64,000 nt of DNA. Origin: an uncultured delta proteobacterium. Its GTDB lineage: Bacteria; Desulfobacterota; Syntrophia; Syntrophales; UBA2185. Under the pieces are notes generated by a model. That model did no database searches and was not told where the DNA came from. It saw only the letters and a list, made by a program, of their open reading frames with translations. Positions 24,710 to 30,469 of the stretch are shown piece by piece. Position numbers and translations under genes: made by a program. The stretch lies in the NCBI GenBank assembly GCA_963729715.1, contig CAVSPA010000007.1, forward strand, positions 288,001 to 352,000, given 5' to 3'. Each line of letters opens with the position of its first letter. Within the stretch, counting starts at the first letter, position 1.

Positions 24710-26086
24710 CTATTGCGATTTCCGATGCCAGATATCCAGGATTCTGACGGCCTTATCTTCAGGCAGGGTGTGCAGTCCCCTCTCGTAGTTGGAGAGGGTC
24801 TGCCTCGTCACACCTAATGCTTTGGCCAGTTCCGCCTGGCGCAAGTAGTTATCAGCCCTGAATTGCCTGATAATCGTTTGATCGGCAATCAGATCTTCTG
24901 CAGTTTTTGGAATATCAGAAGCGCGAGACTCCTGCCTGTACTTTCTTCCCCGGACCGGCCTTTTCTGCCGAAATGGCAATTTAGCTCTTCTGGGGGTATC
25001 GGCTACCTGCCAGAGATCTTCCGATAACTTCACCGTGAGCGCCGTATTAAGCCAGTCGTTGAAGTATCCTCTGCTCCTCGCCATCGGCTCTAAGACCGGA
25101 ATACTTTCTATCACGCCTAAGTCTTCGAGACGCTGATGGGCTTCGATAAATGCATCAACCGTCTGTCCCGGGTGCCTCCAGTTTATATCCTCGCCGCAAA
25201 AATTTAGAATAGTCTTCGGTGTAGCGCTGGGGAGCATCCCCTTTTTTTCGGCGACAGTGCCGACAATTATCCAGTATGTTCCCAGCTTTTTTGTCAAGGC
25301 ATCATGATAAGGGCTCAGGTGCAGCAGAGCTTTACTGTAATACCCGATCCAGAACAGTCCCTCAGGGTCGAGGAAATGTGAAAGCGCCTGGCCGCAACGA
25401 AAACGAAAAGAAGTCCATTTCTCCGCTTCACGCTTATACTCTATATCCAATATGTCCAAAAGCCTGTCCGGCCGTTCCTTTCCGAAGGTGACTTCCCCTC
25501 CGGTTTTATAGTCTCTCCAGGACATGGTGAGGCGCATGTCGGCAAGCCGCAATACCTCCTGTTTAAAGTCTTCATAGAGATTCTGCCTGCTGCCATGCCG
25601 GAGGCGAACTCCGCGCGATTGAGCAATGTCATCAAGACTGATACTGGCGATTCCTTTCTTGGGATCCGGCAGTTCCGCAATACGCGACATGAGAATCAAA
25701 AATACATCCGCAGTCTCCACCGATAAATTATGGACTGCTTTTCTCAGGCTTCCGGAATAGATGAAATCAAGGCGCGGTGTGTAGTATAGCGCTATGGAGT
25801 GATGAAAGCGGTTCCCGAAATCGGGTGGAGGCGCAAAGAAGAACGTTACATGCCCAGCCCTTGTTTCGTATTTGTACAATGGGCGGCCGTACAAATCCGA
25901 CGCCCACGCGCTTTTCGGACCGCCTGCATATATGGCGCGCAATGCGGAATGGATCAAGGGGCTGATGGGAACAGGGAATCTTTTCTTTTCACGATCTGAC
26001 TGACCTACAGGCAGCTTATCGATCTTCTGCTGAGTAAGGGAATCATGATGGTGTCTCATAAATGGCCTATTTATTTTAGCAACCAT
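24710..26086 (-). CDS. Hypothetical DNA-binding protein: possible replication-initiator-like region plus C-terminal XRE HTH
   Basis: C-terminal LRQAELAKALGVTRQTLSNYERG is a clear XRE HTH; ADVFLILM...ISLDDIAQSRG is only suggestive of a winged helix. Confidence 0.6.
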   Translation of the reverse strand: MVAKINRPFMRHHHDSLTQQKIDKLPVGQSDREKKRFPVPISPLIHSALRAIYAGGPKSAWASDLYGRPLYKYETRAGHVTFFFAPPPDFGNRFHHSIALYYTPRLDFIYSGSLRKAVHNLSVETADVFLILMSRIAELPDPKKGIASISLDDIAQSRGVRLRHGSRQNLYEDFKQEVLRLADMRLTMSWRDYKTGGEVTFGKERPDRLLDILDIEYKREAEKWTSFRFRCGQALSHFLDPEGLFWIGYYSKALLHLSPYHDALTKKLGTYWIIVGTVAEKKGMLPSATPKTILNFCGEDINWRHPGQTVDAFIEAHQRLEDLGVIESIPVLEPMARSRGYFNDWLNTALTVKLSEDLWQVADTPRRAKLPFRQKRPVRGRKYRQESRASDIPKTAEDLIADQTIIRQFRADNYLRQAELAKALGVTRQTLSNYERGLHTLPEDKAVRILDIWHRKSQ

Positions 26087-26304
26087 CTCTCACATGCATC
26101 GGGTTAACCCAATTTAAGGAATATAACAAGAGAGCTGTTTCATCCGCCGCCATCAATTACTGACATATACAGGATTCAGATGATTTTAGGAAGTGCAACT
26201 TGCAGGGAGGATTGTTTATTAGCCAGTATGTTTAAGAAAATATATTTAATGCATAAGGATACTTTTCTCTATAATCGATATTAATACGAAAATAAAACTG
26301 TGCA

Positions 26305-27549
26305 TCAAGCCGCTTCAGGCAGTTTTTCTACTTTGACCTCATAGCCTAAGGCAGTGATCCTTGATGTTAAACGTCTGACAAGATGTTGTTCATTTAACTT
26401 GTCGAAATAATCAGCACCAAGTTCATTGTAAGTGCGATGCTCTTTGATAATATGGTAAGCCATAACTAAGATGGTGTGGCCGACAGCAAGGGCTGCCCGT
26501 TTCTTCCCCCTTCTTGCCGCCAGGCGACGGTACCTGGCGCTCAAGTAGGTGTTTTTTGTTTTGGACGCTGCCCATCCAGCTTCCACCAAGGCGCTTTTGA
26601 GCCATTTGTTCCCCTGTGTCACTTTGCCGCTTCTTCGTTTTCCCGCGCTTTCATTGTTGCCCGGACTGGCTCCCGCCCAGGAGGAGAGGTGGGCATCTGA
26701 TGGGAAGCGTGACATATCGATTCCGATCTCGGCGATGATCCGCTCAGCGAACTTTTTTTTTACACCTGGAATGGTCTGGAGACCTTCAGCTTCCTCCTGG
26801 AAAGATTCCATCCTCTTCTCTATTTCATCGTTCAGCTTCTCGATGGCCTCGTCATACGAGGCAATCATCTGAAGCGTCAGTTTCAGGATGATACGATGAT
26901 GATCCGAAAAGTAACCCTCCAAGGATTTTTCCAGATCCTCGATCTTGTTCCTGAGACGCCCTCTGGCGAGATCAGCCATTTCCTGAGTGCTCATATCATC
27001 CTCGATCAGATGATGGATCATGTTCCGGGCAGATACCCCGTTGATGTCCGTTGCCACTGAAGAAAGCTTGATATTGGCATCCTCCAGAAACTTCTGGAGG
27101 CGGTTGATCTCAGAAGAACGCTTCTGGGTAAGTTTCTCACGGTAGCGCGTGAGGTCTCTTAACTCCCGGATCGGCTTGGGAGGAATAAAGCTCGCCTTGA
27201 CCAGGCCGTGACGAAGGAGTTGGGCAAGCCATTCGCAATCCCTTACGTCGGTCTTCCGTCCGGGAACATTTTTCACATCTCTGGCATTGGCCAGAATGAC
27301 CTCCATGCTGTCCTCCAGAATGTTGAATACCGGCTTCCAGTAAACCCCGGTGCTTTCCACAACCGCATGGGTGCAACCTTCTGATACCAGCCAGTCTCGA
27401 CAGGCCAGAAGATCACGGGTCATGGTGGAAAAGGTCTTGATGGTTGTCTTCGGTTTCTCATGGGGTTTGCCCACCGCCAGGCAAACAACGATGTTCTTCT
27501 TGTGGACATCGATACCGCAGCATCTCTCAATAATGGCTCCCATAATCAT
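26305..27549 (-). CDS. IS110 family transposase/recombinase
   Basis: DEDD RuvC-like motifs GIDVHK, VVESTG, KTDVRD; LQTIPGV, AEIG, PGNNESAGK (catalytic Ser), GNKWLK. Confidence 0.96.
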   Translation of the reverse strand: MIMGAIIERCCGIDVHKKNIVVCLAVGKPHEKPKTTIKTFSTMTRDLLACRDWLVSEGCTHAVVESTGVYWKPVFNILEDSMEVILANARDVKNVPGRKTDVRDCEWLAQLLRHGLVKASFIPPKPIRELRDLTRYREKLTQKRSSEINRLQKFLEDANIKLSSVATDINGVSARNMIHHLIEDDMSTQEMADLARGRLRNKIEDLEKSLEGYFSDHHRIILKLTLQMIASYDEAIEKLNDEIEKRMESFQEEAEGLQTIPGVKKKFAERIIAEIGIDMSRFPSDAHLSSWAGASPGNNESAGKRRSGKVTQGNKWLKSALVEAGWAASKTKNTYLSARYRRLAARRGKKRAALAVGHTILVMAYHIIKEHRTYNELGADYFDKLNEQHLVRRLTSRITALGYEVKVEKLPEAA

Positions 27550-27570
27550 GTCTCCTTTCTCTTTAAAAAA

Positions 27571-27700
27571 GGGGGCAGATTATCGATGAAAAATTTAATA
27601 CGCGTACTCCCAAAGGGGTAACAATCCGTGGTTCTTTTAATCTGCCCGGGTCAGATTACTACTCGGGGTATGACCACCAAAATATCGACGACCCTCTTCC
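27571..27700. ncRNA. Candidate IS110 bridge RNA (two internal-loop domains)
   Basis: Stems 27573-27582/27638-27647 and 27648-27652/27690-27694; loops carry TTAATACG (matches junction 26281-26288) and GATTACTAC (matches junction 27780-27788). Confidence 0.68.
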
Positions 27701-27785
27701 TTTTGAAGAAAGGATATAATGTCAAAGAGCTATAAACAACTTATTTTCATGCCTTCGTGGTGCCCTCGCGGGGCATGTTGATTAC

Positions 27786-27863
27786 TACGAAAATAGAACC
27801 GCCGAAGACTATAACAACTTATTTTCATGCCTTCGTGGTGCCGCCACGGGGCATGGTGATTTT
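27786..27863. mobile_element. 78-bp miniature derivative carrying both IS110 ends
   Basis: Starts TACGAAAATA and ends with a near copy of 27736-27783 (AACAACTTATTTTCATGCCTTCGTGGTGCC...GGGGCATG.TGATT). Confidence 0.6.
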
Positions 27864-27898
27864 TAAGAAAATATTTTTAGTACTTCATACATTATTAA

Positions 27899-28426
<528 letters not shown>

Positions 28427-28720
28427 CTACGAAAATAGAACCGCCGAAGACTATAACAACTTATTTTCATGCCTTCGTGGTGCCGCCACGGGGCATGGTG
28501 ATTTTTAAGAAAATATTTTTAGTACTTCATACATTATCTAAAAAATACCGGATTCTTGGATACGGCTCCTTGTTACTTTTCTTTTCAATAGGGTATCGAT
28601 AAACTACTCCTCGCAGTGCGGGGTAAATAATACTTGTGGGTTGGAAATATGGTTGGAAATGAGTCCTCTTTTAAAAAAATGGGGCGGTCTGAATGTAGTC
28701 TAACTCTATGATTTAATTAT

Positions 28721-28795
28721 TGGTGGTCCCACCGGGACTTGAACCCGAGTTTCCGGCGTGAGAGGCCAGCGTCCTAACCACTAGACGATGGGACC
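28721..28795 (-). tRNA. tRNA-Glu (CTC)
   Basis: GGTCCCATCGTCTAGTGGTTAGGACGCTGGCCT-CTC-ACGCCGGAAACTCGGGTTCAAGTCCCGGTGGGACCACCA; cloverleaf with encoded CCA; downstream of gltX. Confidence 0.96.
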
Positions 28796-28856
28796 GCGGA
28801 CGATGTAATTGGAGGGTGATTTTTAGTCAATCACCCCTGAAATGTCAAGGTCAAAA

Positions 28857-30269
28857 TCAACCTCTGCAATTAATGAACGCAATTGCTCTTCGTATGCGTT
28901 TGATGACCCTCTCTTTGCCGATGGTGATCATAATTTCATCAACGCCGGGGCTCACGGTTTTTCCTGTCAGTGCAACGCGGAGGGGCTGGGCAATCACCTT
29001 GAGGCTGACGCCCCTTTCTCCGGCGATGGCGCGGAGAAAATCCTCCATGCCTTTCTTCGTAAAATCCTGGAACGTGGGAAGCCCTTCAGCTATGGCAGTC
29101 AGATGATCCACAATCTTTTTGTCGAGAAATTTATCAGCCGCCTGCGCGTCATAGACAATATCATCCGTGAAGTAAAAGACACTTGCATCGGCAAGCTCTG
29201 CGAGAGTCTTCGATCTCGTCTTCAGGTCATCGGCGATATGTTTCAGAAGATCGCAGTCTGAAGTATCAACACCCAGTTTCTGCCAGAGTGGCATCGTCTC
29301 CTCTACGAGTCTTGCGGATTCACATTCCTTGATGTAGTGTTGATTCAGCCAGAGAAGTTTTTCCGGATTAAATACAGCGGCGGATTTTCCGACGGACTCA
29401 AGCGTAAAAACTCGGATAAGTTCATCCAAAGAAAATATTTCCTGGTCTCCGTAAGACCAGCCGAGCCTGACGAGATAATTCACCACGGCCTCGGGCAGAT
29501 AGCCCATTTCCTTGTAGGCCATGACCGATGTCGCCCCATGACGTTTGCTCAGCCGCGCCTTATCCGAACCCATGATCATGGAAACGTGTGCGAATTCAGG
29601 AACATCATATCCGAGCGCCTGATAGAGGAGGATCTGCCTTGGCGTATTGTTCAGGTGGTCATCCCCCCTAGTCACATGGGTAATTTCCATCTGGGCATCG
29701 TCCACGACGACGGCAAAATTATACGTGGGGTAGCCGTCGCTTCTTTCTATGACGAGATCATCGAGTTCCTCGTTATTAAAGGTAATCATCCCCTTAATCA
29801 GGTCATTTACGACCGTCACGCCCGTGTCAGGACACCGGAAGCGCACGACCGCATTCGCGGACCGGGGAAGGTTCTTATCCCGGCACGTGCCGTCATACTT
29901 AGGCTTCCTCCCTTCGGCAAGGGCCCTCTTCCTTTTGCCCTCCAGCTCTTCGGGAGTGCATACGCAGCAGTAGGCCTTGCCTTCATCGAGGAGCCTTCTT
30001 ACCATTTCTCTATGGATATCTACACGTTGTGCCTGAAAAAAAGGTCCTTCGTCCCAGTTGAGCCCCAGCCATGACAGGGCGTCGAGAATCGCCCTTGTTG
30101 ATTCCTCCGTCGAACGAACCTGATCGGTATCCTCAATCCGGAGAATAAATTTTCCGCCCTCGTGCCTGGCATAAAGCCAGGAAAAAAGAGCCGTTCTCGC
30201 CCCGCCGATGTGCAAGAAGCCCGTCGGAGACGGGGCAAAACGGGTTCTGACATTTTTCTTTTCCGTCAT
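28857..30269 (-). CDS. gltX: Glutamate--tRNA ligase
   Basis: RFAPSPTGFLHIGGAR, LRIEDTD, RGDDH, LSKRHG. Confidence 0.97.
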   Translation of the reverse strand: MTEKKNVRTRFAPSPTGFLHIGGARTALFSWLYARHEGGKFILRIEDTDQVRSTEESTRAILDALSWLGLNWDEGPFFQAQRVDIHREMVRRLLDEGKAYCCVCTPEELEGKRKRALAEGRKPKYDGTCRDKNLPRSANAVVRFRCPDTGVTVVNDLIKGMITFNNEELDDLVIERSDGYPTYNFAVVVDDAQMEITHVTRGDDHLNNTPRQILLYQALGYDVPEFAHVSMIMGSDKARLSKRHGATSVMAYKEMGYLPEAVVNYLVRLGWSYGDQEIFSLDELIRVFTLESVGKSAAVFNPEKLLWLNQHYIKECESARLVEETMPLWQKLGVDTSDCDLLKHIADDLKTRSKTLAELADASVFYFTDDIVYDAQAADKFLDKKIVDHLTAIAEGLPTFQDFTKKGMEDFLRAIAGERGVSLKVIAQPLRVALTGKTVSPGVDEIMITIGKERVIKRIRRAIAFINCRG

Positions 30270-30469
30270 TTTATTAACCGTACCCACCGCTTTGATGACC
30301 TTCTTATAGGGCTGCAACTTTCGCTTGTCAAGCCGGATTTCGAAAGGTAAAATTATACTTGACAACCAGGCCAATTTATAATCTACTTCGCACCTTACAG
30401 CAAAAGCTCATCGCATGCCTGGGATACATTTTAAGAATAGAATCCGACGCATATAATTAAAGAAGTACC

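Follow-up and report, generated by a model that had tools for sequence, protein, structure and literature searches.

Insertion sequences and the question of a bridge RNA

The locus analyzed in this study raises the question whether the non-coding region in front of a recombinase gene encodes a guide RNA, which of its loops addresses the target and which the donor DNA, and from which strand the RNA would be transcribed. It lies in a stretch of 64,000 nucleotides (nt) from an uncultured delta proteobacterium of the Syntrophales (UBA2185; GenBank assembly GCA_963729715.1, contig CAVSPA010000007.1, positions 288,001 to 352,000 of the forward strand). The whole stretch is called the window in the following, and positions are counted from its first letter. 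For the IS110 family of insertion sequences (ISs), guidance by RNA has been established experimentally (PMC11208160; PMC11187229). Such bridge RNAs program DNA recombination and were described only recently, so that natural variants reveal what is fixed in the RNA and what can vary. An earlier note on this DNA had proposed a two-loop bridge RNA with readable guides and a TA core, encoded upstream of an IS110-type recombinase gene and possibly antisense to it.

Our analysis supports the presence of an IS110-family IS in which the region upstream of the recombinase gene forms a two-loop structure resembling a bridge RNA and carries readable guides, with the loop assignment, core and strand changed. 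With a probability of roughly 0.85, the window carries an intact, recently active IS110-family IS, in which the 232 non-coding nt upstream of the recombinase gene encode a co-directional bridge RNA with two loops.

Element boundaries, copies and homologues

The window holds an intact IS110-family IS, as such an ordinary kind of element. Its ends were fixed by aligning three genomic copies with their flanks, i.e. the window copy and the two further full-length copies of the source genome, of which L002 is identical across the element and L003 is 91% identical. The boundaries can thereby be read directly from the following features and junctions.

26283..27781, minus strand: body of the IS110-family IS, 1,499 bp, same span in L002 and L003
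26281..26282: core TT, left copy (AA in recombinase orientation), from the junctions of the three copies
27782..27783: core TT, right copy, from the junctions of the three copies
26283..26304, minus strand: short right end (RE) with the CGTATT half-site and one inverted-repeat arm
26305..27549, minus strand: recombinase gene, 414 amino acids (aa), DEDD_Tnp_IS110 and Transposase_20
27735..27781, minus strand: terminal region of the left end (LE) with TCAA, CATG, a hairpin (27762-27774), CACCACGAAGG (27752-27762), then CATGAAAAT
Window copy, + strand junctions: left TCGATA-TT-AATACG, right GTTGA-TT-ACTACG
L002, + strand junctions: left TCGAATA-TT-AATACG, right GTTGA-TT-TTTAAG
L003, + strand junctions: left AAAATA-TT-ACTACG, right GTGGA-TT-TTTAAG

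The direct repeats are spaced by 1,501 nt. Both the junctions and the comparison of homologues, which share a core A[A/G] in recombinase orientation, place the core at TT on the + strand, and the TA core of the earlier note had to be given up. Non-coding DNA is distributed unevenly, with 232 nt upstream of the recombinase gene and 22 nt from its stop codon to the element end. The recombinase has the N-terminal DEDD RuvC-like and the C-terminal Tnp domain of the IS110 family (DEDD_Tnp_IS110, PF01548, E 6.5e-27; Transposase_20, PF02371, E 5.9e-20).

For comparison, 80 loci encoding relatives of the recombinase were fetched. Both anchor motifs were present in 49 upstream regions, 33 of which were kept for an alignment in recombinase orientation after dropping those at least 93% alike. 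Full-length homologues of the recombinase are mostly 410-416 aa long, and relatives of the IS occur in Syntrophales-, Chloroflexota-, Planctomycetota- and Acidobacteriota-type genomes.

The ends carry a sub-terminal inverted repeat, in the window GAAAAT (26288-26293) and ATTTTC (27743-27748; both + strand). It reaches at least 6 nt in 25 of 26 loci, measures 6-8 bp with the consensus (T)GAAAAT(A), and shows a compensated variant, GAAGAT/ATCTTC, in one homologue (L030). Its arms are placed asymmetrically: the RE arm lies 5-6 nt from the core, the LE arm more than 30 nt away. At the RE, CGTATT (26283-26288, minus strand) is the left-donor half-site.

Loops and guides

All strings and stems listed in the earlier note were recovered. 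The string TTAATACG occurs both in the upstream region (27595-27602) and across the left junction (26281-26288), and GATTACTAC both upstream (27654-27662) and across the right junction (27780-27788). Their loops are closed by the stem GGGCAGATTA (27573-27582) with TAATCTGCCC (27638-27647) and by GGGTC (27648-27652) with GACCC (27690-27694), respectively. A third match had been missed: AATATCGA (27681-27688) is the reverse complement of TCGATATT (26275-26282), which consists of the left flank and the core.

How easily such matches arise by chance was estimated by shuffling the non-coding region 2,000 times with preservation of its dinucleotides; the shuffles were compared on both strands with 22-nt windows around both junctions. 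An exact run of at least 8 nt at the left junction was obtained in 300 of the 2,000 shuffles, a run of at least 9 nt at the right junction in 38, and both jointly in 19. Taken by itself, the left match is therefore weak evidence; finding both matches is moderately unusual. The real support for the guides lies beyond the window alone, in the covariation across copies and homologues.

This covariation was found, with one loop following the flanks and the other the element ends, and it assigns the loops in the opposite way to the earlier note. In L003, the TTAATACG loop reads TTACTACG, and position 27598 and the element end at 26284 have both changed from A to C. Because it changes together with the element end, this loop is the donor loop. 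In the GATTACTAC loop, L003 reads GATTTTTAA, which equals the right junction of L003 itself; it follows the flank and is therefore the target loop. With these labels the upstream region comprises the following parts.

27567..27703, minus strand: structured part of the predicted bridge RNA, in which an outer stem encloses the target and then the donor stem-loop
27648..27694, minus strand: target-binding stem-loop (stem 27648-27652/27690-27694, inner hairpin 27664-27679)
27573..27647, minus strand: donor-binding stem-loop (stem 27573-27582/27638-27647, inner hairpin 27603-27623)
27654..27662, minus strand: 3'-side guide of the target loop, GUAGUAAUC, a sense copy of the left target and core that extends 2 nt into the left end
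27681..27688, minus strand: 5'-side guide of the target loop, UCGAUAUU, complementary to the top strand (recombinase orientation) over the core and the right target
27595..27602, minus strand: 3'-side guide of the donor loop, CGUAUUAA, copying the RE end and the core in sense orientation
27623..27638, minus strand: donor loop, 5' side, with the weakest guide of the four

Covariation was directly observed for three of the guides. The 3'-side guide of the target loop shares a run of at least 8 nt with its own left flank in 22 of 28 loci, compared to 1 of 714 non-cognate pairs. For the 3'-side guide of the donor loop, which in the window matches the CGTATT half-site, a run of this length with the own RE was found in 24 of 32 loci (non-cognate pairs: 5/728). 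The 5'-side guide of the target loop, perfect over 8 nt in the window, reaches at least 5 nt with its own site in 10/29 loci and 35/678 non-cognate pairs. The core itself ties the guides together: at loci with a called core, its sense copy is present in 31/32 target-loop and 32/32 donor-loop 3' guides, and its complement, allowing wobble, lies on the 5' sides of both loops. Thus, target, donor and every guide share the core dinucleotide.

The fourth guide is less clear. A contiguous right-donor guide complementing the left-end terminus was looked for, and the window offered only the core complement plus 2 nt, GAUU (27623-27626), a weak match whose counterparts in the homologues fit inconsistently. 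Next to it, ACCACG (27627-27632) is a sense copy of an internal left-end segment. Sense copies of this 9-10-nt segment with an exact run of at least 8 nt were found on the donor-loop 5' side in 5/29 loci, compared to 29/638 non-cognate pairs; no known guide rule accounts for such a covarying sense copy. The mirrored segment lies between the covarying hairpin and CATGAAAAT, and the hairpin is bracketed by two CATG motifs. The description of the right-hand guides as only weakly evident thus holds for the second donor guide and fails for the second target guide, which is strong with 8 of 8 nt.

On the minus strand, in 5' to 3' direction, the predicted RNA would begin with the outer stem or a 5' hairpin, followed by the target stem-loop (27648-27694) and the donor stem-loop (27573-27647). 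The 3'-side guides, as sense copies GUAGU-AA-UC of left flank and core and CGUAUU-AA of RE end and core, would pair with the bottom strand. The 5'-side guides would contribute the core complement and the right half-site, perfectly with UCGAUAUU in the target loop and weakly with GAUU in the donor loop. From these features, we infer that the RNA is produced, that the recombinase binds it, and that it guides recombination at the AA core.

Conserved structure and strand of the predicted RNA

The long non-coding end contains a conserved structure with two internal loops, and compensatory changes are directly visible in it. RNAalifold, applied to the 33 aligned sequences, predicted 28 pairs with compensatory changes in 19 of them. 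Standard pairs make up 94.1% of the cells, compared to 76.7% in shuffles, and the observed value was not matched by any of 500 shuffles on any measure; controls with slid partners were paired to 28-47%. In a scan of positions 25800-28900 against Rfam 15 (E up to 10), no bridge-RNA family was found, and the matches were limited to a tRNA (28724-28795) and chance hits.

The alignment is also asymmetric between the strands. The 28 predicted pairs contain 159 G:U and 8 A:C cells. Both orientations were folded to avoid the bias of a structure predicted on a single strand, and the 33 pairs predicted by RNAalifold on both strands still hold 79 G:U and 24 A:C cells. Fold energies of the alignment were -57.95 in sense and -49.32 in antisense orientation. 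Read on the minus strand, each of the four guides ends 3' at the core, whereas on the + strand the guides would point away from it. Once the loops are labelled correctly, target precedes donor only if the minus strand is read, as in IS621 (PMC11208160). The inner donor hairpin is directly preceded by TT in 8 of 9 loci with an AA core and by either CT (9) or TT (14) in loci with an AG core, and CT never occurs together with AA. As a U·G wobble is allowed for a sense RNA at this place and forbidden for an antisense RNA, the pattern fits the sense RNA only. Loop order, wobble statistics and guide polarity together favor the minus strand, so a bridge RNA on the recombinase strand is the most likely reading of the aligned sequences, and the antisense proposal, which arose from the mislabelled loops, is rejected on this comparative basis.

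Upstream of the outer stem, at a distance of 12-13 nt, a -10-like hexamer matches the consensus in at least 5 of 6 positions in 14/33 homologues, 11 of which also have an upstream TG. Contigs covering the region were found in RNA libraries, in two metatranscriptome runs of one study (shares 0.16 and 0.11), where contig X1 covers 27217-27765 and contig X2 covers 27434-27830. The X2 contig, from a relative, runs from the recombinase start over the left-end terminus into an RE-end-like sequence. A tandem copy and a circle junction would both look like this, and the two are indistinguishable here.

Tandem mini-element and insertion sites

To the right of the window IS, the DNA is not an ordinary flank.

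27784..27859, minus strand: non-autonomous mini-element of 76 bp, made up of one end similar to the RE and one similar to the LE, present in three genomic copies

The mini-element is followed by TT (27860-27861) and then by TTTAAGAAAATAT, the usual target, a motif that also flanks L002 and L003. The target loop of the window copy specifies GTAGT-AA-TATCGA (recombinase orientation), which is the junction of the RE-like end of the mini-element with its flank, and this match to a sibling junction explains the tandem arrangement. The relatives L003 and L017 (91-94%) carry the guide TTTAAA-AA instead, which fits the common TTTAAG motif and differs from the window version in 4 of 6 left-target positions. 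The window therefore represents a clean natural case of a guide change with a matching change of the site.

This IS lineage usually inserts at the extended motif TTTAAGAAAATAT(A/T)TTTA. The motif recurs in the genome, with similar unoccupied motifs at 26231-26248 and in L013, L014 and L015, and L013 is a paralogue of the L002 flank without an insertion. In L019, L027 and L077, the left flank, taken as the 22 nt before the left end, is the RE-like end of a related element (ATTTTC plus 6 nt) that abuts the left end; insertion beside the right end of a relative thus recurs in other genomes. A search of the source genome for the reconstructed pre-insertion site with up to 2 mismatches gave 75 matches compared to 99 for the control and no exact copy, which shows the uniqueness of the site and is uninformative beyond that.

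Between 27901 and 28423 the assembly contains 523 A bases, enclosed by 119-nt duplicates (27785-27903 and 28427-28545; 97%) that take in the mini-element and its flank. The A run and the duplication look like an assembly artefact rather than biology, and accordingly the second copy of the mini-element may not be real.

Weighing of the explanations

Several observations weigh against a minus-strand bridge RNA with the guides described above. Many homologues have a short or mismatched right-target guide, and in 19 of 29 its run stays below 5 nt. As the homologues are mutually related, the cell counts are not independent events. Folds of the window alone fail to separate the strands (-63.7 kcal/mol for minus, -62.4 kcal/mol for +). 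In the RNA libraries, which may contain DNA, the contigs come from 90-95% relatives, are unstranded and are uninformative as to strand, ends and expression level. The promoter and terminator scan gave nothing useful near the structure, with no sigma-70-like site upstream of it on the minus strand and no promoter on either strand, and the -10-like hexamer of the window copy matches at just 4 of 6 positions. Compared with IS621, the order of the guides is reversed, since IS621 has the sense copies on the 5' sides of the loops and the window IS on the 3' sides. The main loose end is the identical copy L002, which sits at a TTTAAG-type site with a left target that mismatches its own target-loop 3' guide. 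This left target fits the guide of L003 and L017, and the right target fits with one extra base; an older insertion with a later guide change and another route would both account for it, and we cannot tell which applies.

The version of the earlier note, a + strand guide RNA antisense to the recombinase leader with TTAATACG in the target and GATTACTAC in the donor loop, draws on the roughly equal folding of the window on both strands, on its main stems being purely Watson-Crick, on the lack of a promoter hit on either strand in the scan, and on a superficial likeness to IS621 in that the sense-copy guides would come to lie on the 5' sides. We nevertheless consider it very improbable, because the covariation contradicts its loop labels and, with these corrected, its order would become donor and then target. 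Its guides would have their 5' ends at the core and pair with the DNA strand opposite to that in IS621. On the + strand, the 79 G:U cells would turn into A·C mismatches and only 24 would be gained, the standard pairs would drop from 94.1% to 77.6%, and the UU core complements opposite AG cores would also become A·C mismatches. A different matter is an antisense transcript from the + strand that would regulate the recombinase in addition to a minus-strand bridge RNA, with which it is compatible. A perfect TATAAT on the + strand (27716-27721) speaks for it; this hexamer points away from the loops and had no -35 partner in the scan, and we regard such a transcript as unlikely.

It could also be that no guide RNA exists and that the internal copies are sub-terminal DNA repeats bound by the recombinase, or chance matches. 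Motifs of a protein-binding type are indeed present, namely the conserved sub-terminal inverted repeat and the CATG-flanked hairpin, and the 8-nt left match was frequent in the shuffles (300 of 2,000). The compensatory changes and the G:U excess, however, point to selection on an RNA fold, the flank-matching segment varies with the insertion site over 28 loci as a fixed protein site would not, and the family is known for RNA guidance (PMC11208160; PMC11187229). This explanation has the slightest chance of those considered, and the minus-strand bridge RNA is retained in the following.

Comparison with known bridge RNAs and seekRNAs

In IS621 (Durrant et al. 2024, PMC11208160), the RNA is likewise encoded in the long non-coding end upstream of the DEDD/Tnp recombinase gene. 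Its two stem-loops likewise contain internal loops, with the target loop preceding the donor loop, and each loop carries one bottom-strand and one top-strand guide. The core is present in all four guides, whose 3' ends lie at the core, and the left-target guide extends 2 nt into the left end (PMC11208160), as in the window IS. Differences concern the core (CT in IS621, A[A/G] in the window IS and its homologues), an outer stem that encloses both stem-loops in most homologues of the window IS, unlike in IS621, the sub-terminal inverted repeat (2-3 bp in IS621, 6-8 bp here) and the recombinase, which has 326 aa in IS621, counted from the protein in Supplementary Table 1, and 414 aa here. By eye alone, the rows of this table for ISSsu10 and for ISAfe3/ISGka2/ISSto4 look closest to the window IS. 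In its sheet 1, the Donor and Target labels seem exchanged relative to the text, as the 'Target' row holds the RE-LE junction.

The seekRNA of ISEc21 (Siddiquee et al. 2024, PMC11187229) likewise derives from the upstream non-coding region and is co-directional with the transposase gene, an orientation that the window IS would share. It also has short matches to both target strands and is naturally re-directed by guide changes (PMC11187229). In position, with an upstream non-coding region and the target loop before the donor loop, the window IS thus agrees with the IS621/ISEc21 type. In guide placement it departs from this type, with its sense copies on the 3' sides; ISEc21 has the bottom-strand match before the top-strand match, the reverse of the window IS.

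The seekRNAs of the IS1111 type (ISEc11, ISPa11, ISKpn4; PMC11187229) resemble the window IS in this respect, since the complement of the top strand lies 5' of the bottom-strand match, provided that the 'top strand' of that publication equals our convention, which we infer from the agreement of ISEc21 with IS621. IS1111-type elements also have sub-terminal inverted repeats of several bp (PMC11187229). These measure 7-17 bp in the IS1111 group, compared to 6-8 bp and an asymmetric placement in the clade of the window IS. The IS1111 type has its non-coding region downstream and transposases of about 340 aa, whereas in the window IS the region lies upstream (232 nt, with 22 nt downstream) and the recombinase has 414 aa.

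Tandem arrangements are known from CazIS110-1 (bioRxiv 10.1101/2025.10.25.684509), where tandem repeats are by-products of bridge-RNA-guided recombination. The window IS is also arranged in tandem; it differs from CazIS110-1 in that its partner is a diverged 76-bp derivative with an end matched by the target loop.

The element is thus of a known kind and possibly a variant in guide architecture. Guide polarity to the core and the order of target and donor have been kept, and relative to IS621 the loop side of the long guide has been swapped. If confirmed, this swap would widen the design space and link the IS110 and IS1111 arrangements. Going further, the clade of the window IS might carry a third bridge-RNA arrangement, combining an IS110-type position, an IS1111-type guide order with the top-strand complement first and, at the 3' side, the long bottom-strand guide extended by 2 nt, a repeat of 6-8 bp and a donor-loop 5' strand mirroring the left-end segment next to the covarying CATG-flanked hairpin, with the window copy as a natural retargeting onto a sibling end. 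We put this forward tentatively and hold it to be rather doubtful; if true, the arrangement would stand between the IS110 and IS1111 groups as an evolutionary intermediate, and recognition of the donor might be assisted by structure. The guide arrangement may also already be published, as a 2026 preprint with 86 covariance models and 32,190 bridge RNAs reports many that deviate from IS621, and these architectures could include it.

Recombinase reading frame, further elements and neighboring genes

A homopolymer in the recombinase gene varies among relatives.

26753..26761, minus strand: run of A9 in the recombinase gene (T9 on the + strand), A8 and a frameshift in relatives

The A8 form was found in L003, L017 and one RNA-library contig, where the frame is broken after about residue 262, between the two domains. 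Contig X1 is one base short at 26752. The A8 variants could be due to homopolymer errors, decay or an expression that depends on slippage.

At seven places of the source genome (L006-L012, on contigs C3, C4 and C5), 72% identity to 125 nt of the recombinase gene was found; these probably belong to a second, different multi-copy IS110-family element. The IS is neighbored by a gene for an HTH_3-domain protein (24710-26086, minus strand) and by a tRNA gene (28724-28795, minus strand), and the gene at 28857-30374 (minus strand) resembles, by eye, a glutamyl-tRNA synthetase gene.

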